Shown piece after piece: positions 18,045-56,437 of a DNA stretch of 64,000 nucleotides. Both the position numbers and the translations under genes were made by a program. The stretch is from Blasia pusilla. Its lineage: Eukaryota. The notes beneath the pieces were generated by a model, which saw only the letters and a list, made by a program, of their open reading frames with translations, did not search any database and was not told where the DNA came from. The DNA is taken from assembly GCA_050084515.1 (NCBI GenBank), contig CM114271.1, positions 30,938,001-31,002,000 on the forward strand, in the 5' to 3' direction. How positions within the stretch are numbered: position 1 is the first letter of the stretch; every line of letters begins with the position of its first letter.

Positions 18045-18850
18045 ACAAGTGTCAATGCATGTGCCCTCTAACTAGATATGCTGCATAGATACTATCTATT
18101 CCATTGCTGATTGACATGACCATTGTTGTGTGTGTACACATTACTAAACAACATACATTATTATCATAAATAGGTGATACTTGACCGACAAGTGTCGATG
18201 CTCGCTCCCTCTGGGTATCTTGTATAGATTTTATCTACTCCACTACAAATTGATGTGACAATTGTTGTACGCATACACATCTGCACAACATGGATTTTTA
18301 ATTACCATCCACACAACTCATTAAGTTAGAAACCATATTCAATTGTTCCATGGAGACTAGACACATAGATGATCTTGTACCAAAAGGTCTCCAATTTCCC
18401 TTCTAGTTGGTTGGTAGGTCTCTCTACCTCATGACAACTATCTATTCCTACCTATAATAACAAACATTTACGTGGTGCTAAGTGCAAAAAGGCCAAATGC
18501 TCAAGTGGCCACACTTTTAATTTCCTCTTGATAATCCATATAACTCTCTCAAGTCTAGATCCATAGTTACTTGTCCTATGTACATCTAGGATACCTTCAT
18601 TGTCCTTGAGAAACCCTAGTGACTCAGTAGCGAGGGGTGGAGCCAAACATGATGTATACCACCCTCCTGAACATCCATCATGTACTCGCATGATGGCCGT
18701 ACCTCATGATGATCCACACAACATGTAATATAACTTTATATAAGCTTGTAGGTATCATTGCTAGGCTTGGGTACACAGTCCCATCAATATTCGCAATGTA
18801 ATATGGCATGTTGTTATGCACATGATCGATCCTTCCGATGATGGAATAAT
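18045..18850 (-). mobile_element. Degenerate 3' remnant (element D) of the DNMT/PHD Gypsy-like family
   Basis: ORF 18452-18691 (HDGCSGGWYTSCLAPPL) aligns by eye with the PHD of elements A and B. DNA at 18700-18850 matches the integrase tail (~24040-24170). It retains the PPT-flank (TTCTAGTTGGTTGGTAGG) and the TGACA-AT-TGTTGT junction. Confidence 0.7.
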
Positions 18851-22966: not shown

Positions 22967-23924
22967 CAACGTTGTGTCGTACGCATCCACATCGCTACAC
23001 AACATACATCGTTGTCAACGAACACACACAAACACGCACAATCCCATCCTAACTCATGGCATCCAAACAACGAGACAAGAAATACCAAAATATCTCCAGT
23101 AAATCAAGATCCAATCTCTCTCACAACACAATAGTTCTCACATGTGTGCACTCTCACATATCTCTCTCAATGTCAAACTAAACCCACTCTACTAATGAGA
23201 GGCTTGGGTTACACACACAAGGTAAGCAAGACCATAGCTCCTCCGCCTCATGCCAAGAGGTTCAACAAAGAGAGAATGAGCTCTCAAGCTCTCTCTCCTT
23301 GAGGTATACCCCTCCCCTCTCCCAAGCTCTCTCCATGGTAACCTATGCTCCCAAGTCACCTCCTTGGCTCTTGACCTGATGTAGGAGGTCAAGCGCCACT
23401 TACCAAAAATATAAATTCGATCATATATTCAAAATGGTACTTACCTAAAATAGCAAGTTCCTCAATATGGCTCCAAATGAGCCGAAACGAAGGGGAAACA
23501 TGCTCTCTCAGATTTCCCGGGGCCTTAGCAGGTCATCCTTGACCTATTAAGCCTGTCCTCCACTACTCACGAAGGCGCTCTACTAGATCTCACTGATCTA
23601 TTAGATGTGACAGCCATCGTGCGTATCCACATCGCTACACAACATACATCGCTATCACCGAACACACACACAAACACACACGATCCCATGCTAACTCATG
23701 GCATCCAAACAACGAGACAAAAAGTACCAAAATATTTCCAATCGCCCCCCTAGTTGGTGGTTAGGTCCCTCTAACTCCAGATAGCCATCTATCCCTACCT
23801 ACCATGATATACATCTCTCGGACGCTAAGAGCAAGAAGGTCGGGTCCTCATGTGGCCCCATCGTTAGTCACCTTCTTGTCATCCATGTCATAGACACAAG
23901 TTGAAATATAGAACTACCTACTCT

Positions 23925-26900
23925 ATGTACATCTGGGACACATCCATCATCCTTGAGGAAGCCTAGTGAGAGATGGCGTGAAACATGCCATATGCCATCC
24001 TCTCAAACACCCATCATAGACTAGCATAGTGGCTGCACAACGGGCGGAACCACACAACATACACCGCAAGCCTGTAGAAACTATTGCTAAGCTCAGATCA
24101 AATGTACCATCAATGTTCAGAAGATGACATGGCGTACCGTTACGCACATGGTCCTTCCAAACCATACCATCGCGTCCCTCCAATAAGAGAACACTGGATG
24201 GCAAAACCTCACGCACTCTCAAGATGGTGCACCGTTCAGTCACATCCAACGTCGTGGATGCCGTTTGTTGCAAGTAGACATAGTCTCCCTGATGAAACTT
24301 GTGGATAGTAGATTGAGAACTACCTCTCCGAATAGTCGCATACCTCAACGTATCCTGATGTTGCGCAATCGCCAAGTTCTCAAACGCCATGGGCATCACT
24401 CTCCGAAACAACTCAGCCCTCTGAGAACATGCTTGCATCCATATATCAAGATTATCAAGGTTCAACACCTCACCCACATCTCGACAAATGGCCATAGGTA
24501 AATATGGCTCTTGGCCATAATGCAACAAGTACGGTGAGAAAGATGCTAAGGATGCCTGCCTGCTGAATCTGTATCCCATCGCCAACCACGGCAACTAAAG
24601 GTCCCAATCTCCTAGGTGACCTCTCTACAAGCCGTACTTGCATGGTCCTCTCTTCATTGTCTGCACAACCCGCTCCGCTAGTCCATCCGCCTTAGGATGA
24701 TCTTACGAAGTAGTGCGGTTGATCAGTGTCTGATCACACAAGGCCTGAAACTCCCCACGGAACTCTATACCCTGGTCTGTCAACACCTCAGCTGGTGCAC
24801 TGTAATGACTCAACACTTGATCTAGGAAGGCATACGCTACTCCCTCACTCAATTTGTCAGGAAATGCAACCAACTCTATCCACTTCGAGAAGTGCTTGAC
24901 CATCACCAACACATAACGACTATGGCGCTCCGTCAAAGGCAAAGGTCTTGCAAAATCTAAACTCCATCTATAACCTAAATCCATGATCGGAATTGGATGC
25001 AACTGTGGAGTCAGAACATTAAACGATGCTCAGACTTGATCACACACCATGCATCTGGCAACAAACTGTTGAACGTGAGTCTGCATGCCTCGCCACCAAT
25101 ACTGAATGTGGAGCAAGTTGTACTTCCGCTTCTCTCCAAAATGACCCAACTCCTCGTGGGCATGACACACCAAACGTGCTATCTACAAAGGATGAGGCAC
25201 TACACGCACTCTACCATCCTCCCACACTCGCAACACATGTGTGTCCTTCCACCAAAACCGTCTGGCTCACTGTAGGATCCGATCCCGCTCTCTAGCACCC
25301 ATTGTGCTTGCAATGCTGCCAGTACATAAGTACTCCAAGACCACTCCATCATCGTGAATGTCTCGGCCACTTGTCATCTCCTCACGAGCCTCTGGATCTT
25401 AGGACTCTCCATCAGACCTCGCCATCAAAGTATCAGCAATCCGGCTCTCCATAGCCAAGAAGCCCAAATAGGCTGACGTATGCCATCCTGGCACCAACTC
25501 CTCATCACTCTCACCATGGCAACGAGCTCCAGTCGCATCTTGCTGTCTCGGGCATGGGTTACGGCTCAAACCATCTACATTCTGTTTGAGCATCCTAGGT
25601 CTATGCACCACTTGGAAGTCATACTCCTGCAACAAAAGAGCCCACCTTGCAAGCTTCCCTGTAAGCTTTTCAAACTCCATCAACCACTTAAGTTACTGAG
25701 GATCAGTAATGATGATAAAGGGATTGCCAAATAGATAACATCTAAAATCTGCGACAACACATACTGCAACCAAGCACTCACCCTCATACGAGCTATACTT
25801 CGCCTCTACAGCGTTGTTTGAGCAACTAGCGTAAGCCACCACAAACTCTCTACCATCATCGTCATGTTGGGTGAGCACGGCTCCAAGCCCCAACATGCTT
25901 CAATTTGTATGCAACTGGAAAGGACGTCCCCTCATCGGTCTCTTCAATATGGGCGCGAACTTCAATATGTCCTTGAGCATCTGAAATGCTCTCTCTTGCT
26001 CATCCCCCTAGAGCCACTCCTAATCCACCTTGGTCATCAAGGTTAGCGGCTTTGCAATCAAACTGAAACCCTTGACGTACCGTCGATAGAAGTTCGCCAA
26101 TCCCATGAATGCACAAACTCGACTCACATCTGTAGGGCGTGGAATGTTTGAAATAGCCTCTACCTTCGTCTATTGCATATCTTGGCTCCCTGGGTATATC
26201 GTATGACCCAAGTACTCAATCAGGTCGTACAAGAATTTGCACTTTCATGAATGTAGCTTCAACCCATGTAATTGCAATCGTTGAAACACCTCCTCTAGAT
26301 GTCGCTCATGCTCCTCAACCGTGGCGCTAGAGACTACGATGTCATCAATATAACACCTAGCAAAATCCAGACCTGCCAAGATCCTATCCATGATCCTCTC
26401 AAACTCATCCGGGGCGTTCTTTAACCCGAATGGTAAGAACCGCCACTAGTACAAACAATCTTTCCCGTGAGGATCGATGCCCCAAAATGCTATCTTCTGC
26501 CTATCCTCCAATCTGATAGGCAGCTGATGGTATCCGGTTCGCAAATCCAATGAAGTGAAGACCTTTGCATGCCCAATCGTATCAAAGATCTCCTCAAGGA
26601 TGGGCATGGCATACCTATCGGACTTCGTCTGCCAATTGATAGGTCGATAATCTCCACACATCCGCCTATTCGTCCAGTTGCCATGCACATCCTTCTTGGC
26701 GGGCATGACAGTGGTAGATGCATACTCTTCATGCGACATCTCCACTAGTCCTGCTCCAACCAAGTCCTAGCTCCTACTCTGAATCAGAGCCCTCTTCACG
26801 TCACTGTACATGTAGGGTTTTCAGAAGATTGGCGTGTCACTCGACAACTCAATGCGGATCCCTGAACCCTTCAACGTACCTAAATCATGCATACTAAATG

Positions 26901-26945
26901 CAAAACAGCTCCTATAACTCCCAAGAAACTGGTGTTTTTGACACC
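23925..26945 (-). pseudogene. Element A pol 3' part: RT - RNase H - integrase - PHD finger
   Basis: RT: RRMCGDYRPIN...DLRTGYHQ...CYIDD. RNaseH: LGLGAVLTQ...VAYAS...YSSYEGECL...ARWALLLQEYDF. Integrase: HHCC finger, RWSLDF...FSKWIEL...TDQGIEF. PHD: CMLC..(Y)DGC..WHMAC...WMCPRC. Several stops and frameshifts. Confidence 0.92.
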
Positions 26946-26950
26946 GCTCT

Positions 26951-29900
26951 TGTCGCGACCCTCATAACCAAACAACACCAAATACGCGCCAAGCGAAACA
27001 TCAGAACTCAAAGGAACTCACGCCGCGAGGTTTGCGCTTTGGAGAGGCGTTTGGAAGAGTCTCTTGGAAAAGTCTAAGAGACGAAACGTGGAACAGAGTT
27101 GTGCGTTTCATGCGTTAGTGGTCGCGACCAGGAAACCTAGACCAAACGCGAGCCGAGACTTGAGATGAGTTGAGTCTCGGAGGTTGGTTGCCAAGGAGGT
27201 GAGAACCAGTTTGGAACACGGCTAGCGTTTGGGAGAATCTGACTGTGTTTAGGACCATAACGTTGAGCTCCGAGATGCGTTGGGGACAAGTAAGGGCGCG
27301 TTGGAAAGCTGATCTTGAGACGCTTCCAACGCACCAAAGATCTCAGCAAACGCATAAGTACAGGCTGAGATATTGGCCGAAAACGATTCAGAGAGCAATC
27401 GGGTTGAGGGCCAATTGGAGGGGCCCGGGTGTCTTTCCCTAAATGTAGGGGGCCCCCGGAGATCCCCAGAAGTACTAGTAAGGGGAGTACCTTCTCTGAG
27501 ATGTCTCGGGAAACGAAACCCCACTTTGGGCGCCAAACGGGCGTTTGAGGCACGGGATGAAACGGGAGTTTGCGCGGAAACCCCAAACCCAAACCTGATC
27601 CAAGGGAGTGGACTTTTACGCCACACTTGGATTCCAACCGAGATTCACCGTGCGAGTCTTGGTGAGGAACTCATTGGATGTTCATCGGACATTGGAACCG
27701 CTTAGGCGCTAAACGCCGTTTCAGGTTCCTGAACCGACCAGAAAGTCTGTCCCAAGTCTTTCGAGACTTGCCCGTGTTGGAAACCGCGAAACTAGGAAGG
27801 TTGAGCTTGAAGAGAGAGTCCGAGACGAGAACTCGGAAAGTAATCCCGCTGATTGATCCAAGACCCGACTAACCGAAGTGCGTGTTTGGATGCAGATCAG
27901 CGTTGAGAGCGTGACCATCGAACGCGACGCTTCCGCAACAAACAAGATTAACGTTCAAGGAGAGTAGGCGCACGACACGTGATATATCGAGCAATTCCTT
28001 GATGAGCGTGAACTTGGGGTTGTTGAAGATCTGGACGTTTGGGGAGAACTCAAGGTAGCCGGAAGACCGCGACGCCGAGGAGGAACGCAAGAGGCGAGGA
28101 GGAGATCTGAGAAAAGGCGACGACTCGCAAATGGCGACCAAGGACGAAGAACCGAGGAAACCGCGAGTCAAAGCAAAGAAGCCAAGAGACGAATCAATGA
28201 CGGACCGAGAGCCGAGAGGTGGAATTTGCGACTCGAAGTGCGAGTCCCGGACATGAGGATGTTCCAACCGAAAATCTTTCAGCGGGACCTTCGGGTCCAA
28301 ACTTAAACGATCCGGCCTTTTATACCCAAATGATGGGATTGATGAAGGTGGTGGCGGACCAGATGGCTGAACAGAGCAAGGTGATCTCGGAATTCAAGTC
28401 AAATGGAGCCTCTAGCTCGGCAAGAAGCTTTGTAAGACTAATTTGCCAACGCCATTCAGAATGGGGCGTTTCGAAAGTGAGCGAAGTTTCTAACGGAACT
28501 CGAACTCTATTTCAGCGCAAAAGCGATGAACAAGACAAGGTGATCAGAGCGGTCACGTTTCAAGGATCACGCTCTCCATTGGTGGACGGCTCACCGGAAA
28601 GAACATCTAGGTCGTGGGAAAACGTTGAGTTGGGAAGATTTCAAGGAGTTGATTGGGAACCGATTCACTCCGAATATCGGAGTACCGCGATGGCATGGAG
28701 GTGGTGAGGTTGCGCCGAGTGGATCACTTGGTGCTTATGTGCGAGAGTTTAGTGCGCTCATGAGTGCACTTTCCACGGACGAACATACTAAAAGGTGATC
28801 TTCCTAAGTGGGCTCAAACCGAGTGCCAAGAAGGCTCTCTTTCGTATGCCTCACATCCCGCAGACGCGCGGACCTCTTGAGACTAGCCGAGCGGATTGGG
28901 GACGATGAAGTCCAACACCCAAACCCTTTGAGACAAAAAGTTTTTCTAAGTTCTGAAGAATAAAGGGACATCCAAGAGGGTTTGGAATGGGGGTGAGAGC
29001 GACCACGAGGGTCTCTCCGGCCGCTAAACGAAAGTGGAACTCAACGCGAAGCGAAGGGCCGCCGTTCACGAAGTCAACGAATGCCAAAGTGATTTGTTAT
29101 AATTGTGGCGAACCCGGGCATATGGCTAAGGAATGTGTGAGGCCCAAGGTTAGTAAACCGAGTATGATTGCGTTTGCCGCTAAGCATTTATCGGAGGGAG
29201 ATCTAGATACATCTCTACAAGTCACCAAGAGAACGCCCAATTTGGTTTACCTAGGATCCAAGATCGCTAATCGCGATGTGATGTTGCTCGTTGATACAGG
29301 TGCTTCACACTCATTCTTGAGTTCGAGAATCCTAAAAACGTTGGGATTGCCAACCACCAAAGCGGATGAACCCATTAGGGTAGGATTCGCGGGAGGAAAA
29401 TCCCACCAGACATAAGATCTGGTTTTAGGGCTAGTTGTGAGATGCGGAGTATTTGAGTTGAAGGAGAATTTTACAGTTTGCGAGATGGACGGTATCGACG
29501 GAGTCTTGGGGAACACGTTCTTGGATGCGTATGAGGTGGAACTGAGGCGGAGACCTTTGAGGTTAAGCGTCTTGGTTAACGGCAAACGGACGGACGTCGA
29601 TTGGTTCGTGAGGTGCCTAGAAAGACGGAGTTGGTGAACGCCATCACGAGGACGAGTTTGGCCGAGTTAGAGGAAGGATTCCTTTGCTTGATGAGACGAG
29701 TAGAGGATGATGCAAGCGCAAGATGCAGAGATCAGAACTCAGCTTCAAGGGAGATCCCTGAAACACTCAAGAGAGTTGTGAAAGAATTTGAAGATGTGTT
29801 GACTAAGGAGCTTCCGACGAGTTGCCACCACATAGGCGGTTGATCATAAGATTGAGGTGATACCAGGATCTCAACCACCTTCAAAGGCACCATATAGGTT

Positions 29901-32900
29901 GAATCAAGAGGAACTTGCTGAGTTGAAGAAACAGTTGGGTGAACTCCTAGAGAGGGGTTACATCCGAACGAGCAAGTCACCTTATGGGGCGCCCGTCCTC
30001 TTTGTCAAGAAGAAGGATGGGAAGTTGAGACTCTGTGTTGATTATCGGGCGCTGAATAAAGTGACGGTAAGGAATAACTATCCTCTACCGAGGATGGATG
30101 ACCTCTTTGATCGATTGTCGGGTGCCAAGTATTTCAGCCGGATTGACCTGAAATCAGGATATTATCAGATTCGGATTGCCGAAGCGGATGTAGAGAAGAC
30201 TGCCTGTAGGACGAGAAACGGTTCGTTCGAGTTTGTAGTAATGCCTTTCGGTCTTTGTAATGCGCCTCCAACGTTTACCACTTTGATGAACTCCATCTTT
30301 CACAAGGAGACGGATGAGTTTGTGATCATCTATATAGATGACATACTCATCTATTCGAAAACACTAGAGGAGCACGCTTGACATTTGAAGACGGTGTTTG
30401 AGAAACTTAGGGCGAACAAGCTGTATGCGAATGTGGATAAGAGTGAGTTCGGTTTGACGAAGATCAAGTTCTTGGGACATGTGGTCAGTGCGGATGGAGT
30501 GAGTCCAGACATGGAAAAGGTGAGCGCGATTGCCGAATGGGAACCGCCTTCCACCGTGAAGGGGATGCGAAGGTTCATCGGAGCTGTCCAGTTTTACCGG
30601 ACATACGTGAAGAATTTTTCGGGCATAGTGAAACCTCTCACGGATTGGACCGCAAAGTTTGCCAATACTACATGGACCAAGGAAGTGGATAAAGCGTTCA
30701 ATCGAGTCAAAGAGATCCTCTCGCAGAACCGATTCAAAGCGCGGAGTTTGAACAACGCGTTCGAGGTGCACACGGATGCTAGTGATTTCGCGATTGCAGG
30801 AATGTTGGTGCAAAAGGAGACCAGAGCATACGAAAGCAAAAGCTGACCGACACCGAAAGGAGATGGCCTACTCATGAGAAAGAGTTGTTTGCGGTGGTTC
30901 ATTGCTTGAGGAAGTGGGCGTCACTATTTGGGACTTCACAGGACTCGAGTATTCACCGATAACATATCGCTCAAGTATTTTGAGACCAGGATCGCGTGGC
31001 GCCAAAACAACCGGTGGCATGATACCTTGGCGTTGATGAATGTGGAGCTAATCCACAAGCCGGGAAGGACAATGTCATTCCAGATCGTTAAGTCGCAGGA
31101 TGAACACATGCCATCGGCGACACAAGTGTTGAGAGCAATGTTCCCTAATGAAACAGATCTGGAAAGAAGGATTCGTGAAGGATACATGAAGGATGAGCAA
31201 GCGAGGGAGTACCTTGGGAAGTTAAAGCGGGGCGAGAAGGTGGCCAATCTGAGTTTGAGACACGGCTTGCTAAGGTTTAAGCAGAGCAGGATCTATGTAG
31301 GCCAAGGCAAGCTACGAACCAAGGTGTTTGTGGAATGTCATGATGGACCTTTGGCGGGACACAAAGGGAGAAATCCACTCTTCTGTTTTGTCTAAGAGGT
31401 TCTTCCGGCCCAACATGAAGGAAGATGTTGCTCAATATGTGAAAACATGCGTGACCTGCCAGGAGAACCGCGTGTCTTAGAGGAAGAAACAAGGTTTACT
31501 TCATCCTTTGCCAATCCCGGAGGGACCCTTGCAAAGCATTAGCATGGATTTCATTACGAGTCTTCCAGAATCTGAGGGATACAACGCTATACTTGTGATA
31601 GTTGATCGGTTTAGCAAGTTGGGGAGGTTTGTGCCGACGAGAGAGTCTGCGACGCCTCACGCGACTTCCGACTATTCCTGGATGGTTGGTGGCGTGCGCA
31701 CGGATTGCCTAGGAGCATTGTGTCCGATCGGGATCGAGGTTTACAAAGTGCCTTTTGGAAACATCTATTCAGGAGGTTCCGGACCAAACTCGGCTTTAGT
31801 ACGGCCTTCCATCCTCAAACGGATGGGCAAACGGAAAAAGTAAACTCGGTCGTAAAACCAATACTTACGGAATTACGTGAGTGCGGACCAAAGAGATTGG
31901 GCCAAGTGGTTTAAGTATGGCTGAGTATTGTTACAACTCGACTAAGCATTTCGCAACGGAGAATCTCCGTTTCTTCTGGCGTATCAAAGAGAACCAGAAG
32001 GGCCTCTTGACTTAGCTCTTTCGAAGGGCAATACATCGACACACACTCGTCAAGCAACGGCGGAATGTTTGTTAGTGGAAATGCAGGAACGACAAGAGCG
32101 AGCGAGAGAAAGTCTCGCCAAGGCTCAACTAAGGTACGTAAAGCATGCTAACAAAAGTCGGCGCCATGTGAGTTTCCAAGTTGGGGAACAAGTGTGGTTG
32201 AGTGTTAAGAATCTCACTCTTCCGAAAGAATTGTTCGAAATTGTCACCAAGTATCTTTGGACAGTATGTGATCAAGGCAAGGCCGTTTGAGGATGTGTAC
32301 ACGTTGAGCCGCCAAACGAAGTTCAAGATTCACCCGACTTTCCATGTGTCATTATTGAAGAAGTATCTTCAAGACAATGTGCGTCCGGAGCGAAGGAGGA
32401 TGTTGAGACCACAACCGGTCATCAGAAATGAGGAACCAGAGTTCGAGGTTGAGACTATTCTGCGTTCCAGACGTAGGGCCACCAAGTACGAGTACTTGGT
32501 CAAGTGGAAAGGCTATCATGTGAAAGAGGCGACTTGGATTGCGGAGGCGGATCTAGAACATGCGCAAGAAGCATTGCGTGACTTCAGATGGATGCAAGAG
32601 AGGCACACGCGTTAGTACATGGTGAAGCAATGGACATAACTTGTGACCGGAAAGCTTGGGCCGATAACCCGTTGTAACTAGAAAGGTTTAGTTGTTGCAA
32701 TAAAGAAGACATGGATTTGGAGATTCGATGCTTGTATTGTAATTTTGAGTTTGGTTTGTGCAAGGCAATGAGTAGTTCTTCATATGCTTAGGATGTAAGT
32801 CAAGGAGACCAAACAATGAGTATTTGAGGTGAGAGCTTGTATTCAGATAAGGCATCTAGATCAGGACCAAATGTTGAAGTACTAGCATTTGGGCTCGCCC

Positions 32901-34329
32901 TAACGTCGGCGAGGCAGATGAGTCTCTTGGGGTTTGTGGTGATCTCATTCATGTTTCATGACTGAACTTAGTGACGCGCCTAGGTGGAATACAGGTGACC
33001 CAAAAGTAGTATGAGTTGGCTAGGTAGACAAAGGTTGTTTACAAATAGTGAGTGAAGTGTTAGGTTGCAGACTTAGTGAGCTTATTTTGATAGTTAGATT
33101 AGTTTTGGAGAACTAGTCTAGGCTCATCGAAAAAGCGAAGCTAATAAGTCTAAGTCTTTGCAAGCGACAAACCTAAGACTTAAGCCAAAAGAGGAATTGC
33201 GGGTTAGCTACGTAACGCGATTATGTGTTAAGGGTCGGCTTCCCGAACTTAACATCAATAAGGTTTGCGTTGATGAGGACATCAACCTTCTAAGGAGGGG
33301 TGAGTGTCGCGACACTCATAACCAAACAACACCAAATACGCGCAAGCGAAACATCGAACTCAAAGGAACTCACGCCGCGAGGTTTGCGCTTTGAGAGGCG
33401 TTTGGAAGAGTCTCTTGAAAAGTCTAAGAGACTAAACGTGGAACAGAGTTGTGCGTTTCATGCGTTAGTGGTCGCGACCAGGAAACCTAGACCAAACGCG
33501 AGCGAGACTTGAGATGAGTTGAGTCTCGGAGGTTGGTTGCCAAGGAGGTGAGAACCGATTTGGAACACGGCTAGCGTTTGGGAGAATCTGACTGTGTTTA
33601 GGACCATAACGTTGAGCTCCGAGATGCGTTGGGGACAAGTAAGGGCGCGTTGGAAAGCTGATCTGGAGACGCTTCCAACGCACCAAAGATCTCAGCAAAC
33701 GCATAAGTACAGGCTGAGATATTGGCCGAAAACGATTCAGAGAGCAATCGGGTTGAGGGCCAATTGAGGGGCCCAGGTGTCTTTCCTAAATGTAGGGGGC
33801 CCCGGAGATCCCCAGAATTACTAGTAAGGGGAGTACCTTCTCTGAGATGTCTCGGGAAATGAAACCCCACTTTGGGCGCCAAACGGCGTTTCAGAGGCAC
33901 GGGATGAAACGGGAGTTTGGCGCGGAAACCCGAAACCCAAACCTGATCCAAGGGAGTGGACTTTGTACGCCACACTTGGATTCCAACCCGAGATTCACTT
34001 CGTGCGAGTCTTGGTGAGGAACTCATTGGATGTTCATCGGACAGTTGGAACCGCTAAGCGCGAAACGCCGTTTCAGGTTCCTGAACCGACCAGAAAGTCT
34101 GTCCCAAGTCTTTCGAGACTTGCCCGTGTTGGAAACCGCGAAACTAGGAAGGTTGAGCTTGAAGAGAGAGTCCGAGACGAGAACTCGGAAAGTAATCCCG
34201 CTGATTGATCCAAGACCCGACTAACCGAAGTGCGTGTTTGGATGCAGATCAGCGTTGAGAGCGTGACCTACTGAACGCACGCTTCCGCAACAAACAAGAT
34301 TAACGTTCAAGGAGAGTAGGCGCACGACA
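26951..34329 (+). mobile_element. Element C: full-length Ty3/Gypsy chromovirus (Galadriel/Tcn1-like) nested in element A
   Basis: LTRs 26951-27977 and 33305-34329 (TGTCGCG...CACGACA); perfect 5-bp TSD GCTCT; PPT AAGGAGGGG before the 3' LTR; a degenerate tRNA-Met-like PBS after the 5' LTR. Confidence 0.97.
28100..32615 (+). pseudogene. Element C gag-pol (frameshifted): Gag CCHC - protease - RT - RNaseH - integrase - chromodomain
   Basis: [36 protein letters not shown]...[30 protein letters not shown]...[32 protein letters not shown]...YLVKWKGY...ATW. Confidence 0.93.
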
Positions 34330-34699
34330 GCTCTCCTCTTGTCAACTTAGGGCCCATATGTGGCTCCCAAGTCTCCATAATGACTATGGTAGGACTCTCC
34401 GGCGTGGATGTCGGCGGTTGCTATGGTGCAACCCCGTCTCGGACAATAGAACTCTCATCTCCACGTGCAGTACCCGGAACTACGCTCGATGCTGTGGCTA
34501 TCATCTCCTGGCATACGTGCAAAACATCCCAAGAAGTCCAAGGGTATCTCTCCCAATCACCTCTGGTGTGTCGATCTCCTTGGGTCTTGCCCCTAGCCAC
34601 TACCTCAACCGTCTCGATAGGCATGGGGCTCACCAACACAACTTTTGTGATATGTTGCATCCCCAAATGACGTTGCTCAGCTACTCCTAAGCTCAAAAT

Positions 34700-35580
34700 C
34701 CATGTCAAACAGTTCAGGTCCATCGCTTGACCCAAGACATGACGTCGTGATGCCTCTGATAGTGACGGTACTGTCGTCACTCCTGTGGGGAATCCCATCA
34801 CTTGCTCTCGCTCATCGACGTTGGGCTCCACCAACCTCTGTATCTGGTCATCCCAAACCAAGCCAGGTCCGACCTCCTTGAATGCATAGGAAGCAGGAAA
34901 ACTCACCAATGTGGGAAAGGCTTCTCGTGGCATGCCAATCTTGTTGACCACAGTCAATGGCAATCGATCATCATGCCTCACTGCCTGTGATCGATGGCCC
35001 GGATCCAATATAGAATCCACCAACAAATTGGAGGGACGCTCCACTCTCACATAAGCCCTCCTCAACACCTCATGTGGTACCAAGTTGGTCCATCAAAGAC
35101 GCACACCTGATGTGCACTCATCACCACGCGGGACCTTGAATCACCCAAAATTGGTATATTCTCCAAAATGTATGCTAGAGAATGAGGATGATGCTCATGT
35201 AAATGTCATAAGATCCGCATCATCTCCCAAAAAACCTGGACCGAGTGTCAGCTAACCCGCAACCTCATCCAACACTCGATTGGCCCTCACACGGCCAACC
35301 AGCAATGACCAAGTCTATGGTCCCTACCCCCTCCAAGTCCCTTGCGCCCCCAAAAATGAAATGTCCCTTGGTAGGGAACTCTGGTAACTCTGAATGGCGG
35401 ACGCAGACAACAAGTCAGGAAAACGGAGGCGTAACAGCGCCACATGGTGAAGTGAAGCACGCCTTGCAACATCATCAATCTCCACATTTAGGTACTGTTG
35501 CACGCGCACTCTAGCGTGCAAAACAACAACTAAACCAATGCTGATCCCTCCAAAGAGTTCCAACACCCAAATACCCTCCT
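34700..35580 (-). pseudogene. Element A C5 cytosine DNA methyltransferase domain (degenerate)
   Basis: Motif I VLELFGGIS, II VEID, IV DLVIAGWPC, VI YILENIP, IX/X EREQVMGFP...RRHVLGQAMD. The motif VIII region is deleted relative to element B. Confidence 0.88.
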
Positions 35581-35729
35581 CTGGGATGCACCACACAATC
35601 AGGATGATGTCTAAATGGGTCATAGCAGCACTCCTACCTATCTGGGGTTCCTCTGACCCGTCACACTCTAGTGCAAACATCTTGCTCCACGCGGTCTTCA
35701 CATGCTCAGTGGCTAAGCGTCGAAGCTCC

Positions 35730-36565
35730 TCAGTCGAGCCCCAAAGCGGCTACCATGCCACTCCTCTCCATAGAAATATCAAGAAAGGGAGTATCCTTTG
35801 CATGGACATGTCCCTCAATCAAATCACTAGGCCAAGTGATGGCACTGCTAGATGCTGTTAAGGTCACTGTCTCTCCTGGCCGTTGCTCGATCATTGCACT
35901 TGTGAATCGAACGGGTAATGAGCTAAGGCGCCCATCAGCTGAGTGCCATCTTGGTCTGTAGGACGCTGACTCCTCCAAGTAATCGAGGGAAAACCCCATC
36001 GAGTATAACATTGCTCCACCAACCAGGAGGTTGTAGGACTCTGCATCAATCACTGTCGCCTTGGCTCGTACCACAGACTCATCTATAGGATGTCCCGGGA
36101 GAATTCTCACCACGACCTCCTATCGGGTGATATATTGTGTGGTACACGCTCCACCCAAGGATGTCTGTATCCAGAATGGAAAACGCTCCACATCGGCTCT
36201 CGTCAAGCCCAATCCTCTAAATGACGCTTTCCCCAACATCACGGGTTTTGCTCTTGAATCCAACAAGACGCGCTGCGGACTAAAAGCTCTACCTCATGGA
36301 CTCACCAACTGGAAGACCTCTCCCCGATTATCCAGGGAAAAAAACACGAGGAAAAGCCATGGCACGCTCTATCACGGGTCTAGCGGGCATCTCCGCCATC
36401 CTAGCAGCCTACACGCTCCCCCTCGTGTGAAGATGACACAAAAGGAGATTGAGGTGGTCTCTCACGTGGAGACCCTCGAAACCTCGAGCCACTCCGGGTA
36501 AACCCTCCAGAGCTACTCTTAGGTCCACTACCTCGCCTCTCAAAATCCCGAAAGGACGCCATGAT
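35730..36565 (-). pseudogene. Element A gag N-terminal stub and aspartic protease
   Basis: The GGFTRSG stub matches the element B gag start (GGFTQSG). Protease reads RVLLDS(R)AKPVMLGK...YNLLVGG. Confidence 0.8.
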
Positions 36566-37928
36566 GGCCCTCGTGCCCCTCCCACATGATCAATCCCAAT
36601 CTCGCGAGTAATCCCTCACACATGCGGCACTCAATCTACACTCTCTCATTGAGATGTGTGTTGTGCGGCAACAAGCAATATGGTGCGGAAAATCAACTGA
36701 TCTATCATCTCATCGACAAACCATCCTCAACTCTGGACATCCCACACAGGTCTATCTCCCCTAAACCCATACATCATCGATGCTCATAGCATCAGCACGA
36801 AACCCAATATCCCAAATAACTTCCCAATACTCGAAAATCCCTCACAAGTGTAGGATAAGAGACCAGAATGGGTAACCTAAAAATAATGTCGATGTCGCTC
36901 CTCGGCAACTATAAATCTCAACCCCAACTTGGTCGTGAAGACAACTCCTCCAATCAGCAAGTCGTACTCCTCTCGTACTGACGCTGCTGAAACCTCCACA
37001 ATGTGCGGTGCAGGTCTAGCAGTCCGGTGCGGCAGTGGCGGCACGGAACGACTACAAACGACATGGCACTCGGGAATGGGATGCGGCACTCGACGGCATA
37101 CCCTCCTCAATCAGAAATTCACATGCTCTGCTTCTTAGTGAAGGAGCGGCTCCGTGATTAAGATTATCCCTCCCCTCTCCCAAGCTTTCTCCATGGTAAC
37201 CTATGCTCCCAAGTCACCTCCTTGGCTCTTAATCTGATGTAGGAGGCCAAGGGCCACTTACCAAAAATAGAAAATTGCCCATATATATTCAAAATGGTAC
37301 TAACCTAAAATAGTAAGTTACTCAATGTGGCTCTAAATGAGCCGAAACGAAGGGGGAACCTGCTCTCTCAGGTTTTCTAGGGCCTCAGTAGGTCATCCTC
37401 GACCTTCTCAGCCTGTCCTCCACTACTCGCGAAGGTGCTCTATTAGATCTCATCGATCTATCCTAAAAGACGTGAGTTGTATGGAAATGGACATGCGCAA
37501 CGGATCCTCTGCCCAAGTTTATTTGGTAACCCAATGGCTCGCGCAAGCTTGGGATACAAGAACGGGTGTGGGCTTAGATTAAGGGAGGCAAGCAGGCAGG
37601 AATTGGCCCGCCTTAAGCCCGCATCGGCTCAAGGCCCGCGGCTTGGGGTGGGTGCCAACCCAATGCGCCCTTGCGGACCTTGAGCTTGCCATATGGTCCA
37701 GATCGCAAACATGTGTGGGCTTGCCATAAGCTTAGGGAGGGCCAATACGGGCTACAAAACGGGTTACGGGAATGGGCTCGGAAACACGTTCCTTGATTGG
37801 GTATGAGCTAGTCGAGGTCTACATTGCAGGCATGGCGGACTCGGGTGTGGGTTGCGGCCCGCGAGTACCCAAGCCCGCACGGACATGGACATATCCGCGG
37901 ACACAGACTTTGTTTGTGTGCAACCTTG

Positions 37929-40527: not shown

Positions 40528-41110
40528 TATCGTGCGAATCCACATTGTCATACAACGTACATCGCTGACATACCATACTCACATACATACATAACATAGA
40601 CGAGAGCATCCACAAACACAAGTGTACCACAACTGAAATCCGTGAAAGACCTACTGTCATAAAACACGTATAGAATCACATACAATTGAGCCAAACCCAC
40701 TCCACGATGGGAGAATCCACGTTGAAGCTTGCGGGAACCACCATAGCCAAGAGCTCTACTCACTACCAAGGCTAACTCCCAACGCAACAGGCTCAACTCA
40801 AAGAACTAACTGTTCTTTGAGTGCACTCCACACTATATCCTCCAACCTAAGAGCGGGCCCTACTGGAAAAGTCACCCTCAACTAAGTAAACCCCAACCCT
40901 ATGTATGAAACCGCATCTCTACCTAGATACTACGGACCTACATAAGGTATGGCCTCTACTAGCACACTATACTCTACGACATAATCCGTATGGTCATGAC
41001 AACTGTCGTGCGAATCCACATCATCATACAACATACATCGCTCACATACCATACTCACAAACATACATAACATAGATGAGAGCATCCACAAACACAAGTG
41101 TACCACAACT
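40528..41110 (-). repeat. Element B 3' split repeat block B1-A2-B2
   Basis: A 107-bp unit occurs at both 40528 and 41004, flanking a 368-bp unit that recurs alone at 47653-48020. Confidence 0.93.
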
Positions 41111-41120
41111 CGCCCCCCTA
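41111..41120 (-). promoter_or_regulatory. Polypurine-tract-like G-run immediately upstream of repeat B1
   Basis: Sense-strand TAGGGGGGCG abuts B1. The same motif occurs in element A at 23743-23752. Confidence 0.65.
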
Positions 41121-41282: not shown

Positions 41283-42389
41283 CTAAGTACATCAAGGACA
41301 AACCCACCTTCCAGTAGGAACAACATCCATACGTGGAGTCAAACACATCATGTGCCAACCTCTAGAACACCGATCACACACCAACATACGAGCTGCGTTA
41401 CCAACAGACCCACACAACATGCACCTTAAGGTAGCACGTATCATGGCTAAGCTTGGGTCAACAATACCATCCATATTTGGAAGATGACATGGCGCACAAT
41501 TACGCACATGGTCCTTCCAAACAACTCCATCACGACCCTCCAACATGAGAACTCCAGAAGATAACACCTCGCGCACTTGTAAAATAGTGCGGCTTGCCGT
41601 CACATCCAACGTTGTCGATGCAATCTGCTGCAAATAGACATAGTTCCCCATATGGAACCTATGACTCGATGGTCGATAACCTCCACCCCGAATGGTTGCA
41701 TACCGCAACGTATCCCTATGTTGAGCAATGGCAAGATTCTCAAAGGCTATTGGCATAACTCTCCGAAAGAGCTCTGCCCGCTGAGAACACACTCTCATCC
41801 ACATCTCTGGGTCATCAAGGTTCACCACCTCACTAGACTCTCGACGAATTGATGCAAGAAAGTCTGGATCTCGGCCGTATAACAAAAAATAAGATGAGAA
41901 GGAAGCCAAGGATGTTTGGCGACTGAACCTATACCCCATGGCTAACCATGGCAACTGAATATCCCAGTCTCCAAGATGCCCCTTCTGTAGGCCATACTTG
42001 CACAATGCCCTCTTCACCGTCTGAACCACACGCTCAGCCAAACCATCCGCCTCTGGATGATCTCGAGATGTGGTTTGATGATCAATCAACGCCTTGTCAC
42101 ACAAGACCTGAAACTCACCCTGAAACTATGTACCCTGGTCGGTCAGCACTTCAGCTAGTGCACCAAAATGACTAAGCACACTATCAGAAACGCATACGCC
42201 GTTCCCTCACTTGCCTTGTCAGGTAATGCCACCAATTCAATCCACTTGGAGAAGTGCTCCACCATCACCAACATATATCAATGATGTCGTACAGTCAACG
42301 GTAACAGTTCTGCAAAGTCCACACTCCAACGGTAACCCAACCCCATAATAGGCAAGGGGTGTAACTGTGGTGTAGGGGCATTGAATGAT
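41283..42389 (-). pseudogene. Element B integrase core + PHD finger
   Basis: PQLHPLPIMGLGYRWSVDF...; DHPEADGLAERVVQTVK; C4HC3 PHD CMLC...CDRC...WHMMC...WVCP*C (TGA likely from CGA). Confidence 0.9.
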
Positions 42390-42390
42390 G

Positions 42391-43325
42391 GTCAAAAAAT
42401 TCAGGTCCATGGCCTGACCCAACACATGACGTCGTGAAGCCTCAGAAATGGAAGCAACCGCTGTCACACCAGTAGCAAATCCCATCGCAAGCTCTCTCTC
42501 ATCAGCGTTAGGCTCCACCAACTATCGCACATGAGAATCCCATACAAGCTCGGGACCACCTTCCCTGTAGGCATGTGACGAGGGAAAACTCACAAATGTG
42601 GGTAGTGCCATCCTAGGCTGGCCCACACGGTTCACCACTGCCATGGATGACCGATCAATAACCCTCACCACTTTAGAAAGTTGCCCAGTATTCAAGATAC
42701 TATCCACTGTAAGGCAAGGATCCCGTTGCACTGCATCATATGCTCGACGTAGAACCTCCCTAGGCAACAATTTTTTCCACCACAAGCGTGGACGATGTGC
42801 ACGCGAGCCAACTCGCGCTGCATCCAACAATACCGCTGGTCCAATCCAAGACCGCACCTCATGAACACTCGCCATCATCCGGGTCCGAGTGTCACCCAAC
42901 AATGGAACATTCTCCAGAATGTAAGCACATGCCTGATGAACCTGAAGATGTCGTAACACCCGTAACATCTCCCAAAATAATCGAGACCTAGGGTCGTGGA
43001 ATCCCTCACCATGACCAGCACGTGTATGACCGTGACATGGCCATCCAGCAATCACCAAATCCACAGGACCAACCCTTTCAAGGTTCTGCGCCCCCAACAA
43101 TGCAATGTGTGACGGTAAAGCACGCTGGTACCCACGAATAGTTGATGGCGGCAACAACTCAAGATATCTCCACATCAAGTGACCAATATGTCGGGATGAG
43201 ACTCTCTGGGCCGTCTCATCTGGCTCCACATACACGTATCTCTGCGCAGGAATACCGGTCTGCAACACTGCAGCAAAACCAGTGCTAATCCCACCAAAGA
43301 GATCTAACACACAAATGCCCTCCGG
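42391..43325 (-). pseudogene. Element B C5 cytosine DNA methyltransferase domain (all catalytic motifs present; one internal TAG)
   Basis: I LDLFGGISTG; II YVYVEPD; IV DLVIAGWPC; V LFWEMLRVL; VI YILENV; VIII DAA...AHRPRLWW; IX-X ERELAMGF...RRHVLGQAMD. Motif order and wording are DNMT3-like. Confidence 0.93.
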
Positions 43326-46180
43326 CGGATACTACCATACAATGGATGTAGTATCCAAAGGGGATAACCCAACTGGACCAGAAGTAGGGGTCCGCCGTGG
43401 GGCCTCCTCTTCCTCGTGAGTTATAACAGCCTCACACCAAGCCTCATGCACTAGGCAATGAGCCTCTTTCCGTAGTGCACCGCCTGAACTCCCAAGTGGC
43501 ACATCCAACGACAAGGATGCCACTGCTGCAATACTAGGGACCTCCTCTACCTCCTCATGCACAAGAGAATCCATAGCAGAAAGATTACCCTCCAAAAAGT
43601 CTCCTGGCCAAGTGACTACTCCACTAAAACCAGCCATAGATGCTAACACCATTGGGCAAGACCCTCCTTGTCGAGCCCCATAAATAAATCTCACAGGAAC
43701 GTGGCTCATACATCCATCCCCGGACTGCCAACCAGGTCTATAAGACGCTGTCTCAGTCCAATAGTCCATCTGAAAACCCATCGGGTACAATAGTGCTCCT
43801 CCAACTAGTACATCATACGACTTGGCTGATGTGACCACTGTAGGTACTCCCAACCGGGAGCTATCAGTCGCATGATCTGGTCTCAACTGTACAGAGAACT
43901 TCTCCCGTGTCATGAATTGAGACCTATCATTGGCTCCTCCAAGTGATGTTTGAATCTGGAATGGGCAAGGCTCAAGCTCTGACCTCCGAATACCCAAACC
44001 AATACATGCCGCCTTTCCCAACATCAAAGGTTGGGCACCAGAGTCTAACAAGACTCTATTTGGTCTATACACCTGTCTTGTAGGACTCACCAATCGGAAT
44101 ATCCCACTCCGGTTGTCCAACATACATATACCAAGTGTAAGCCTCTCACGATCAATGGCTGGCCGGGCTAGTAATGCATCCATCTTTGCCGTTGCTGCTT
44201 GCCAAGTAGCACTGGTACTCAATGCTACACTTGACATAGAGGGTTGCTCCACCACAACACCCTCATCCACCTCAGCACGTGTAGCAATAACACCCCCATG
44301 TTCATACAACGTGGCTGCTAGCTGAAATACAGGAGCTAAGTCAACTCCTAAAGCCATCAGCTCCGTGGCCGAAAATAATGAGGATCCCAACATTGAAGTT
44401 GCCATCCGCAATATTGCACTAGATGATGCATCCGTGTCTACTACACGTGATGTAGATGCCTCAGTCCCCAATGTAGGCTCAATAGGCTGCGTAGGAACCA
44501 TGGATGAAGTCCTAAGCACCTCAAACAACAAGAATGACTGGGGAAGCCTAACCTGCCTCCGAGCCTCACCCCTCTATGGGTCCAACTCCATAGTAGCACC
44601 ACGTGGCTCTGACGCTTGAGTGGCTCCTCTCGTAACTCCATCTGATGCCTCAACCTATGCTGCACTCGCCATATAAGAGAGATCATCCCCTCCATAAGAG
44701 GTGGAAGCCCCTGCTCCCGAACCTGCTCTATGTTGGATACGAGCCATAGTAGCCAACTTCTGCTCCAACAACTCAATCGTGGCAGCCATAGCTGACTCTG
44801 TCGTAGTGGTAGGGGTAGCCACCGTAGGCTCTCCAAACACTGGTCCACCTCTACCACCTCGGCCTCTTGGAGCTACTCCACCATGGCCGCGGCCTGATCT
44901 CAACTCTAGATGAAGATCAAAGCAACGCTCTCGAGGATGACCTGGTCTCCCGCAATGATCACACTAAGTTGGGGCCGACTGAGGCCCATCCTCTTGGGGA
45001 CAAAACCTCCTAACATGATCACCTCCACATGTCCAACATGACTGTCCTTGCTCCGGGGCAGCAAATGAAGGCAATGGTCTCTCTGCAAGTGTCCCTCTAC
45101 GACCTGACTGAGGTCGTGTGTACCCCCCACGACTCTCACTACTACTACCACCACCACTACTGCGAGACTGTGAGGTGGACTGCTGAACACGAGAAGTAGT
45201 AGGTGTATCCCTACTGAATGTGGATGTCACCACTCTCTCCTCCACCATGTTAAGCTCAATCTTCTCAGATAGAGCAAACACATGGGTCAATGTGGGTGAA
45301 TCATCACTCATAAGAGTAGCATCACGTACCCTGCGGTGCAACTCTCTGTCCAAGATCCCATACCAAAACTGGACTTCCTGAGCCTCAGTCACACCTTGGG
45401 TAACTGAAATCAAGTGTCGCATACGAGTGTATGCCTCACAAAGACTCTTACCAGTCTTTCGCTCAAATTCTTGGAGACTCCTCAACTTCTCTGTCTTCAC
45501 TCCCTGATAGTTCTTCTTCAACCTCTTGAAGAACTCTGCAACCAGGCTGAATGATGGTGGGGCACTAGTACCTCCACTAGTACCCCCACTGGTATCTCCA
45601 TGGGTACGTCCACTGGTACTCCCACTTCGGCTCATACTTGTACCACTCAACCTCGGGCTGGCTTGCATAGTAGGAGCACTACTACAAATACCACCATGGG
45701 TGATAGACACATAACCTGGAGACCAATATTGTCTCCACACCTCAATCTGAGCAACATGGTCCTTCCTAAACTCATGGTTATCATCCATGGGTGGTCCCTC
45801 CAAGTGCTGAAACAACCCCTTCCAAGCCAAGAAGGGTGTAAACAACGTGGCGTTCCGCAACATCTGTATATCACACCACGTATCAAACTCTTGCATAAAG
45901 TCCTCCAACTCAATGGTGCCCACTGCACTCGAGTATCGTGTGGGCCCTTCATGGCCCCATATATCCTGTCCATGTCCCAAATCAATGGAGCTACAACACT
46001 CGATAACAACATAGAAGACTCGGTTTTTGGAACACCCTCATCCTCCTCTTCATCAACCGTCGGAAGTGGAAAAGGTAGCCGATACCTCAATCCACTTTGT
46101 GTAAAACCACCACTATCCACACCACGGTCCCCAACTACACCACTAGACAACTCCGTGATGACCAATGCCAATGCCGCACC
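43326..46180 (-). pseudogene. Element B gag (two zinc knuckles) and aspartic protease, in frame with the DNMT
   Basis: CWTCGGDHVRRFC and CDHCGRPGHPRERC knuckles; RVLLDSGAQPLMLG...YDVLVGG protease. ORFs 44964, 44655, 43332, 42522 and 42237 share one frame. Confidence 0.88.
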
Positions 46181-47652
46181 ACCACCAAATTACCACCACT
46201 AAGTAACCAAGTGACGTCGATGTCACTGTACTATTCTAGCTCTACTAGCTATGGGTATAGGCAACCTAACATGTCATCACCACAAGAAGCCTCCCACGGT
46301 CTACTGGTCATCACGCCAGCCTAACTACCGGTAGCACACAGGAGTAACACTACTCTGGAAATCAGCGTCAACCCTAACAATGGCGCGCAAGCAAGAAGCA
46401 ACGATGGAAGGGATCCAAACACAGGGAGTCCAACGACAAGCCTCCAATCGCAAATGGAAATCAAGGTAACACAATCCACCAAACATGGCGCCCCCTGAAT
46501 CCACAGAACCCACCACACAATTCTAACGCAATAGCTACTCTGCCGCGGGTTGATGATGTGCTAGTCGGACTCGCAGCACTTGAAAATATCACCTACATGG
46601 AGAGGCTACACTGTACTATGCGCTAGAGGTCCATCAACCAAAAACCTGAGATGCATAAAGCGCCTAACACATCTCCGAATAACACCAAATGAGCTACACG
46701 AGTGTGTACACTGGCATAGTTAAGAACTCAGCAGTTAAGCGTCTTCTAGGAAGAATAGCCCAAAGATGGGTGACCAGTTATGCAACACTCAAATCACAAA
46801 TCCTGCAAAAACTGCCTCACGCCCAAGCAAGCAAGCTTGCTCCTTACTCCGCCTCTCACGCCCACTCGCCCCGAGCTACCACGAGTTGCCTTGAAGCTTC
46901 GAAATGCTCAAGACATGCCCCGTTCGCCATGCTTCGCTATGGAGAGAGGCCCAACCAGGCTGCCCCCAACGGGATAGGCGTCTCCAACAACAGACGAATC
47001 ACCAACCAACCAGCCCCTCCGATCTGCTGTCCACCATAACCAGACCTTGAGCTAGTCCGCAAAATTTTGATCAAAAATTACTCCACAAATCCTCAACAAA
47101 AATTGAATCTATTTCAACCAGAATTCAATTGGCTACCATAGTTATCTCTCCACAAAAAATCAACTACAACAGAGCTCTGTACTCTGAGCTAAAAATCAGA
47201 CAAACTTGCTGTCCATACACCTCAAGAATCGCAAATCCGACAGCACTTCCGCCTAGATTCATGCACACAGAAATCCACAACGCTCCACACACTCAAGTAG
47301 ATAGCTTCACATGAGATCACAATACAAGTAGCAAGAGGAACCTCTCACCCAATCTGGATGAACTTCAACAGAGCTTCCGCACTCCAAGCTCTCCATATCA
47401 GAAAACCGTCGAACACGAAACAAAATCTTCAATCCTTGATAACTTCCAACTCCCTTGACAAAATCCGGCGATCTAAAGCGCGTTGGAAAGCTCTCAGCAA
47501 GACGCTTCTTTCCCAATCAACCACGCACTAGATTCCTACCTCCAGCATAGGCCACAAGCCACGAACATCCACGGCTGAGTACACAATCAGCCCTAACTAG
47601 ATCCTATTGATCCACAATCAAAGCTACCATCGATCTACTCTAGTTCTTTGAG

Positions 47653-48020
47653 TGAAATCCGTGAAAGACCTATTGTCATAAAACATGTATAGAATCACAT
47701 ACAATCGAGCCAAACCCACTCCACGAAGGGAGAATTCAGGTCAAAGCTTGCGGGAACCACCATAGCCAAGAGCTCTACTCACTACCAAGGCTAACTCCCA
47801 ACGCAACAGGCTCAACTCAAAGAACTTACTGTTCTTTGAGTGCACTCCACACTATATCCTCCAACCTAAGAGCGGGCCCTACTGAAAAAGTCACCCTCAA
47901 CTAAGTAACCCCCAATCCTATGTATGAAACCGCATCTCTACCTAGATACTACAGCCCTACATAAGGTATGGCCTCTACTAGCACACTATACTCTACGACA
48001 TAATCCTTATGGTCATGACA
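47653..48020 (-). repeat. Element B 5' repeat A1
   Basis: Near-identical direct copy of 40634-41001. It is not accompanied by a B unit. Confidence 0.93.
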
Positions 48021-55300: not shown

Positions 55301-56400
55301 GAGACTTCGCAGTGATGCTACTAGTGTCCATTTGGCGTTTGCAATACCAATAAAAGGTGATCTTCCTTGTATGAATGTTGCATCTAATACCTATTTGAGA
55401 CTTAAGATATCTCAAGTTATAGTTATAGATGGGTGTTCCATGCTCACGCCTAAGTTACTTCAAATCATAGCCATGCGTTTAAATGAGGTATCATATTCAA
55501 CATCCCCTACTCCTTTTGGTGGCAAATTGGTAGTCTTGGTTGGAGACTTATGCCAATTACCACCAGTTTGTTTTCACAGATGTTTTGAATTCTGCAGAAA
55601 TTGTCACATCAACTCCTCTACATTCTTCGATGATATCTTTACTCTTGAACTTACCACTCCAATGAGACATGCTACACATCCATCGTATCTCTTGTTTCTA
55701 AACTCTATCAGGCTTTGCATTTCCACTCAGGATCAGATAAATGATTGTCTATCTTCTTGTTTTGTCCTCGAGTCTGATGCCATTGATTTTATTAACAATG
55801 ATAGAGTAATAGTTTGTACTCATTGCAAAGAAGTATAAATTTTCAATGTCTTAGCACTTAGAAGGCACTTTGGCGATGTGTCAATTATAGAAGTATATAT
55901 TATATCAGATGCCCCTCCAACACCTGAATTTATTTTCTGGTTACAAGATGAAGCATTTTACCAGTTGCCTTTTGTGGCCCTCCATTGCACAGTCATGTTA
56001 ACATCCATAATTAACTTGAGTATACAAGCTGCTAATAGATCCTTAGCAGAAGTTTCTGACCTTATTTACAAAGACACTGACATAGTATAGATTCAGGTTA
56101 GGATTCTGTCAAGTGGCAAGTTTGTTACCATACCTAAGAGAAAATTCGCAACATTGAGGTATGATTCGGATCGCAAATATGTTAAGAAAACTTTTCCTCT
56201 TATTCTTGGGTATGCCATGACTGCTCACAAAATTCAAGGCTTGATCAAATATAAGTGGACATTGTCTTCTCGTAATCAAATCTATTTTTGCACTTGGACT
56301 TACTTATGTTATGTTATCTAGGATTAAGAGTAGAAACCGGCTAAAAATGTTTGGCAAGTTGCAACTTGATGATTTTAAAGTGTTTGATACTGTCTAACAA
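52400..56400 (+). mobile_element. Helitron Rep-helicase pseudogene
   Basis: Rep motifs SPSW...FFLTLT, YELQGRGSLHCHMILW (HUH) and YLLKYAPK. PIF1-like helicase motifs GPLGCGKT, VIVIDG(E)CSM, PFGGKLVVLVGDLCQLPPV, FPLILGYAMTAHKIQG and YVMLSR. Many stops. Element termini not determined. Confidence 0.9.
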
Positions 56401-56437
56401 TACTCACAAACGCTGATTTTTTTCTACAAGAGTTATT

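Follow-up and report, generated by a model that had tools for sequence, protein, structure and literature searches.

A split-repeat Gypsy-type retrotransposon from Blasia with a candidate integrase site inside its LTR

The DNA described here carries members of a high-copy plant Gypsy-type LTR retrotransposon with the layout A1-ORFs-B1-j-A2-B2, in which A1, B1, A2 and B2 are repeat segments, j is the spacer site at the inner B1|A2 boundary and A|B denotes the A2|B2 joint. We consider it fairly probable that the attachment (att) site of the integrase lies inside the LTR, and that new copies are inserted from an end-joined two-repeat circle which is reopened at j. An earlier note on the whole stretch of 64,000 nucleotides (the window) had read three short strings in it as the two ends of an element abutted with a 2-bp spacer, and we followed these strings through a genome of 390 Mb in 26 contigs.

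All three strings stand in the sequence as that note wrote them, at 40995..41010 in element B, 23606..23621 in element A and 18254..18269 in remnant D, and the motif TGACA-NN-TGTCG is exact in B only, the copies in A and D being decayed as had been said. Self-BLAST of the window places them at homologous positions of three related minus-strand elements. Element B has the order A1, coding region, B1, 2-bp spacer, A2, B2, and the same 3' block is present in element A and remnant D. Following element B along the minus strand, A1 (47654..48020) is the left terminus with the starting TG and the left flank GGGG. It holds the TATA-like word GATATAG (47858-47852) and a predicted self-primer (47815..47827), at which the transcript is predicted to start and which is complementary to the primer binding site (PBS), with 1 mismatch in the window copy. 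The self-priming PBS itself, 13 nt long, lies directly 3' of A1 (47641..47653). The coding part begins with a decayed gag, whose CCHC knuckles are visible in translation, a protease-like motif and a C5 DNA methyltransferase (42391..46037, with several stops and frameshifts; the methyltransferase domain inside Pol at 42522-43331). This copy has lost its RT, RNase H and integrase zinc finger through a deletion of ~2.3 kb at 42390, and what is left is the rest of the integrase core and the PHD finger that follows it (41292..42390).

The 3' block of element B starts with a polypurine tract (PPT, 41111..41119) adjoining B1 (41004..41110, 107 bp), which is the predicted left end of a reverse-transcribed repeat B-j-A. 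The junction j (40995..41010, with CA at 41005-41004, the spacer at 41003-41002 and TG at 41001-41000) is the proposed att site inside U3. It is followed by A2 (40635..41001, 367 bp, 95.9% identity to A1), which contains an exact copy of the self-primer at 40808-40796, by the A2|B2 joint (40630..40640, with the break between 40635 and 40634), which is the proposed place of cDNA end joining, and by B2 (40528..40634), the right terminus, where CA has decayed to TA. The right flank TGGG matches the left flank GGGG at 3/4 positions. Element A, also on the minus strand and a member of a second family (family A), has a junction with a decayed B1 end and the spacer GC in a 3' block at 22975..23750 (PPT 23750-23743, B1 23742-23615, A2 23612-23101, B2 23100-22975). 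Its body (23760..37475) holds RT, RNase H, integrase, PHD and, by similarity to element B, a methyltransferase-like region, and its A1 (37475-37165) is truncated, with the first TG missing. A CAAC/CAAC duplication flanks this element although its left end has no first TG (37475, 22975). The junction of remnant D, with spacer AT, sits in a decayed minus-strand PPT-B1-j-A2-B2 block at ~18410-17490.

Full copies of the element are ~9.8 kb long. RT, RH, H2C2 and rve are found above the Pfam cut-offs, in this order, in copies L075 and L093, with the C5 methyltransferase upstream of RT and the PHD finger after the integrase; gag and protease were assigned by motifs in the translation only. The best solved-structure relatives of the integrase are the Ty3 and foamy-virus integrases, and no Pfam family of tyrosine recombinases was found in the sense frames of L075 and L093 or the antisense frames of L090 and L093. 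The 4-bp target site duplication (TSD) of 15 complete family-B copies is exact in 9 and has one mismatch in 6, once three candidates with truncated 5' ends and one solo A|B inside a duplication had been set aside from the 19 listed. In family A the TSD is exact in 4/5 copies, and one TSD encloses a whole A-B-A-B unit. The TG...CA ends and the 4-bp TSDs therefore indicate integrase-type insertion despite the DIRS-like layout.

The marks by which a Gypsy element is usually recognized are displaced in this one. The insertion is bounded by A1-ORFs-B1-j-A2-B2 instead of two full direct LTRs, the PPT lies 109 nt before the TG, adjoining B1, and the PBS follows A1, whose end is not a CA terminus. Of the properties of DIRS elements the split direct repeats are found, the tyrosine recombinase is not and TSDs are present. 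LTR finders are predicted to mis-annotate these high-copy elements because they do not have two full LTRs. Tandem B-j-A|B blocks ~1 kb apart also occur in family B (L017), and three genomic family-A joints stand at a spacing of 1036 bases (G000:C1:7357761-7359856).

The case for j as a real feature is carried by genome-wide counts, the short motif alone being modestly above chance: TGACA-NN-TGT matches the window 8 times, where 100 shuffles gave 2.4 on average and 7 at most. Across the genome we found 571 exact family-B junctions with a 22-base pattern and 464 exact family-A junctions with a 19-base pattern, and the reversed-pattern control gave 0 for each. Similarity among family-B copies stops at the last base of B2 in 31/31 blocks from 30 loci (CA in 29, TA in 2) and begins at the TG position of A1 in 30/30 5' ends. 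Both halves of the junction are therefore true termini of the element, which bears out the reading of two termini abutted with a 2-bp spacer.

Whether the spacer is always 2 bp had been left as a question, and the answer is that it nearly always is. It has this length in all 31 family-B blocks chosen by similarity, and, counted by eye in the first 100 matches listed for each family, in 95/100 for family B (GC 42, AC 21, GT 20, AT 6, other 6) and 99/100 for family A (AC 41, GT 23, GC 14, AT 11, other 10). The five family-B exceptions among the matches listed have lengths of 1, 3, 3, 3 and 4, and for both families together 6/200 spacers among the matches listed speak against a strictly fixed length. 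The C, A, T and G that flank the spacer are kept in 54, 55, 55 and 53 of 55 aligned blocks, and with a GC spacer j is a 10-bp palindrome. Relatives in metagenomes have a 2-bp spacer in 17/21 motif matches, the remaining 4 being loose matches. Two metagenome contigs (L224 and L227), with 60-61% integrase identity, carry CACGACA-GT or -GC-TGTCAC after a G-rich tract, and conservation of the junction at this distance favors the att-site role. A fixed length with free letters is what would be expected if the two bases become 5' overhangs that are discarded.

A PPT lies upstream of j in 20/20 junction loci checked, 11 of which were picked for their odd spacers, so the odd-spacer loci do not represent one element inserted beside another. 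Since the real TSDs are 4 bp, j is also not a target duplication. Most of the odd lengths sit in one subclade. A subclade of family B (L131, L132, L134, L135, L137, L140 and L143) has spacers made of A and T only, 2-4 nt long and differing among close relatives, which may reflect imprecise rejoining or slippage at j; another member of this clade carries GC. Decay from a single GC spacer is compatible with the spacer letters of family B (Fisher p 0.45) and fails for family A (p 1.4e-4), and the rate of spacer change, ~0.3 per base, is higher than the mean CHG decay of 0.10. Several master copies are therefore likelier than decay from a single GC. The family-A spacers AC and GT are reverse complements of each other, and their excess over GC and AT is larger than independent decay would give.

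The reverse-transcription signals determine where the ends of the cDNA should be. A purine tract adjoins B1 in 30/30 copies, and the 13-nt PBS directly after A1 has an exact complement inside A in 22/30 copies, the remaining 8 showing 1-2 mismatches, compared with complementarity of at most 9 nt at 5000 random internal sites. The PBS of family A has a different sequence and still pairs (13 nt exact in 2/3 copies), and in both families the self-primer lies ~30 bases below a TATA-like word. This looks like a putative self-priming arrangement of the Tf1 kind. A predicted RNA fold does pair the PBS with the self-primer, the stability of the region being no better than that of shuffles (z -1.0). 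With the PPT before B and the PBS after A, standard reverse transcription should yield B-j-A repeats with j inside U3, and j lies 107 bases from the predicted left end of the cDNA. The earlier note had taken j to be the junction of the element's own circle. This part does not hold, as by these signals the cDNA begins with B and finishes with A, and the new joint would be A2|B2. Its idea of a pre-encoded att site fares better: j is encoded in the element, transcribed and nearly fixed in length, and is a good candidate for such a site.

Some further features of the primer region deserve mention. In a hairpin at 47815-47841 and 40796-40822 the self-primer makes up the 3' arm, and the PBS sequence recurs in the 5' arm. 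Such pairing would mask the primer in RNAs with a start farther upstream, the 3' repeat included, and family A shows a hairpin of the same sort. At one locus (L247:3244-3878, the same locus as L249) PPT-B-j-A is joined at its end to an inverted A running from 180 to 1, and this inverted copy starts precisely at the self-primer and runs as far as CA. It resembles what folding back would produce if a longer RNA had acted as primer, a genomic template switch being the alternative, and it is one event.

Transcription was followed in three stranded RNA runs with the same species label, of which 6-12% each was sampled; two weaker joints lie outside the tabulated ones. Sense transcription extends across all 30 bins from A1 to B1. 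Reads crossing j number 100, 125 and 88 in the three runs and those crossing A|B number 1, 0 and 3. The RNA therefore contains j and mostly lacks B2. One run has a pile of RNA 3' ends at 47859, just upstream of the TATA-like word and predicted start, and RNAs ending there would be without an R repeat, a point against the route proposed below. An RNA joint that jumps back 289 bases inside A occurs in all three runs.

The A|B joint itself keeps traces of priming. The family-A joint has a length variant in 29/100 among the matches listed, and 28 of these 29 spell the start of the family's own PBS (23 with +A, 3 with +AC, 1 with +ACAA and one with +A plus the last PPT base). None of the 100 family-A joints among the matches listed is shortened. 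In family B the joint has its standard length in 95/100 among the matches listed, and the 5 variants comprise 3 with +A, 1 with +ACTC, which is the start of the family-B PBS, and 1 minus one base. A +G from the PPT side is found at A|B in 3 further copies. A third family (L209) is without a shared base at this joint, which fits blunt joining. Some caution is needed in reading these counts, as indels at A|B in family B (5/55) are equalled by one other site with 5, and the trees of family-A and family-B copies are star-like, so that the +A joints could partly be inherited subfamilies. One strongly supported family-A pair has the spacer in common and a different A|B joint. Taken together, the PBS remnants at A|B and the RNA coverage argue that cDNA ends are joined at A2|B2, leaving j as the best candidate for the integrase site. 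Remnants of PBS and PPT have also been described at the ends of HIV proviruses (PMC2797772); these are not circle joints, and the support from the reported cases is loose.

These observations can be assembled into a route of insertion from an end-joined circle. The RNA would start inside A1 and end inside A2, the observed transcription covering the ORFs and j. The first ~13 nt of the RNA would pair with the PBS that follows A1 and serve, in the manner of Tf1, as the minus-strand primer, and the PPT before B1 would prime the plus strand, both signals being present in the copies. Ordinary reverse transcription would then give [B-j-A]-PBS-ORFs-PPT-[B-j-A], and such a cDNA product is a consequence of established retroviral chemistry. 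The blunt A end would be joined to the start of B to make a two-repeat circle, with primer remnants sometimes trapped in the joint, as the joint variants suggest. In the 5' repeat the integrase would nick each strand of j behind its CA, so that either end keeps the common 2-bp spacer as a 2-nt 5' overhang; two such cuts would produce just the processed ends required by an integrase of the retroviral type. Strand transfer would produce A1-ORFs-B1-j-A2|B2 with a 4-bp TSD, which is the form seen in the genome. The uncut j of the 3' block would finally be transcribed and supply both repeats of the next cDNA.

This route makes predictions about other products. A one-repeat circle cut at j would give a dead-end A-ORFs-B form, and in a sample of 39 PPT-B1 ends, picked regardless of what follows, 35 lead into j-A and 4 into flank. 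Two of these 4 one-repeat copies have a readable 5' end, and they start at A1 with TSDs of 4/4 and 3/4. The one-repeat form is not decisive because a B1-B2 deletion gives the same form. We relied on this sample from the element's own genome and left one-repeat forms in metagenome contigs uncounted, because short-read assembly can collapse B-A-B. A more significant problem is that the permuted product A|B-j-A-ORFs-B was seen at 0/30 5' ends and 0/20 junction loci (0/50 in all, upper 95% bound 7%), and in 0/2 complete one-repeat copies. Since a two-repeat circle would contain two identical j sites, a bias toward the 5' site must be assumed. It could come from the left j being double-stranded well before the right j during plus-strand synthesis.

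A competing explanation, which we think unlikely but far from negligible, keeps the internal att site and has no closed circle. In this case the j of the left repeat is cut in linear or incomplete cDNA, both halves are inserted, and the free cDNA ends are joined in the chromosome by host repair to give A2|B2. Displacement synthesis would make the left j double-stranded long before the right one, and it lies only 107 bp from the DNA end, so that the missing permuted forms have a natural reason; the same product, primer remnants and TSD are predicted. Repair of a chromosomal break should, however, leave more deletions than the joints show, family B having its standard length in 95 of 100 and family A no shortened joint in 100 among the matches listed, although patterns that demand exact flanks are blind to large deletions. 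Closure before or after insertion alike would make j an internal integrase site.

It is less probable still that the template itself is of the DIRS/PAT kind, with RNA running into B2 and A|B inherited, so that j only restores the termini, with 2 nt added, by template jumps and the integrase acts on ordinary linear ends. The A-B-A-B order is the split-direct-repeat layout of DIRS (PMC8969392), a choice between two j sites becomes unnecessary, most A|B joints are identical, and one run has 3 sense reads across A|B. Against this stand the 0-3 reads across A|B compared with 88-125 across j, the absence of a priming signal at j (where the nearest ones are the PPT, 107 nt upstream, and the PBS at the A end), and the graded, family-specific PBS remnants at A|B, which are hard to inherit. 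Last, that the junction came about when one element landed beside another, or that its halves abut by chance, with target DNA as the spacer, would suit the modest excess of the short motif in the window and the few spacers of 3-4 nt, but can hardly be believed given more than 1000 exact junctions in two families, the PPT-B-j-A context at every locus checked, the PPT-B1 ends that nearly all lead into j-A, and a single TSD of 4 bp, not 2, around a whole A-B-A-B unit.

Circles cut at j, the route we prefer, have precedents of several kinds. In the circles of IS3, IS30 and IS21 a DDE enzyme acts on abutted ends with a short spacer, and every round draws this spacer anew from the flanking DNA. The earlier note had drawn this comparison, and it stands as far as a DDE enzyme on abutted ends is concerned, but these elements use a DNA-only pathway, whereas here the spacer is inherited in a transcribed part of the LTR, and the LTR-LTR junction of foamy virus is a closer precedent. 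The 2-LTR junction of prototype foamy virus is likewise a CA-NN-TG palindrome with a 2-nt spacer, and in vitro its integrase cleaves both strands of such a junction, the spacer there being AT, giving processed ends with 2-nt 5' overhangs (PMC1180852). An HIV-1 counterpart of 2-LTR junction cleavage was reported by Thierry et al. 2015 (PMC4372172). The foamy palindrome is created by circle closure, while the Blasia j is pre-encoded in U3 with the closure point elsewhere, and the foamy circle route is optional and debated, while here every inserted copy shows the permuted layout.

For the priming, Gypsy elements of the Tf1/sushi type likewise have a PBS after the 5' repeat that is complementary to a site within the repeat, and no tRNA-type PBS (PMC4600332, PMC6317226). 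As these sources describe them, they have two full LTRs with outer att sites and mostly a chromodomain, in contrast to the split repeats, PHD finger and methyltransferase found here; the PHD is unmentioned in the main text of PMC6317226. The split direct repeats of PAT- and Ngaro-type DIRS elements share the A1-internal-B1-A2-B2 layout (PMC8969392), but DIRS elements are described there with a tyrosine recombinase and without TSD, where ours have a DDE integrase, TG...CA ends and a 4-bp TSD.

The closest published element is KnitGypsy-Dnmt3 of the alga Klebsormidium nitens, which likewise combines a Gypsy Pol and a C5 methyltransferase with DIRS-like repeats; a figure legend of de Mendoza et al. 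2018 describes it as DIRS-like repeats with Gypsy domains (PMC5890265). Junction, TSD, priming site and mechanism are all absent from the available text of that paper, and we compared the algal element by protein only. A K. nitens protein (P0122) with the same DNMT-RT-RH-INT order has pairwise identities of 45% over RT-RH and 49% over the integrase. The available part of 10.64898/2026.05.21.726589 names Gypsy-DNMT3 only. Protein relatives with integrase and PHD are found in Haematococcus, Pleodorina and many other assemblies (167 matches, E <=1e-30). The Chlamydomonas element Gypsy-7a_cRei is described as active in the laboratory, with a PHD finger, LTR 'subparts' and a left LTR without its last 8 bp (PMC9940879), and it is possibly a relative of the Blasia elements. 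No description of the junction, of its priming sites or of how the element inserts came up in our search, which left subscription journals, theses and Repbase reports outside. The layout has been noted once, in Klebsormidium, and the anatomy of the priming sites, att site and joint appears undescribed in the literature so covered.

We give about even odds to the broader statement that these elements form a green-lineage Gypsy clade, from algae to land plants, with the att site in U3 and obligate integration from end-joined two-LTR circles. Retrovirology has long debated whether 2-LTR circles lead nowhere or serve as integration precursors, mostly on the basis of drug-block experiments. We know of no dependence on end joining and reopening at an inner site in ordinary retrotransposons and retroviruses. 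If the circle route is correct, this family would be a natural case of required end joining, with thousands of genomic copies and transcribed members, and every inserted copy would keep a record of its own circle-closing joint. Split direct repeats, perhaps those of DIRS elements as well, would then correspond to a 2-LTR circle that has been circularly permuted, and the A-B-A-B layout could be derived simply from ordinary reverse transcription.

The remainder of the window holds a mixture of other sequences. No tRNA gene was found in its 64 kb. An ordinary, unrelated chromovirus Gypsy with two 1-kb LTRs (96.8% identical) lies inside element A on the opposite strand (26951-34329), a host U-box/ARM-repeat gene occupies the minus strand at 5366-8714, and Helitron helicase remnants are followed by 157-bp and 134-bp tandem repeats (52649-57550; 58507-59241).
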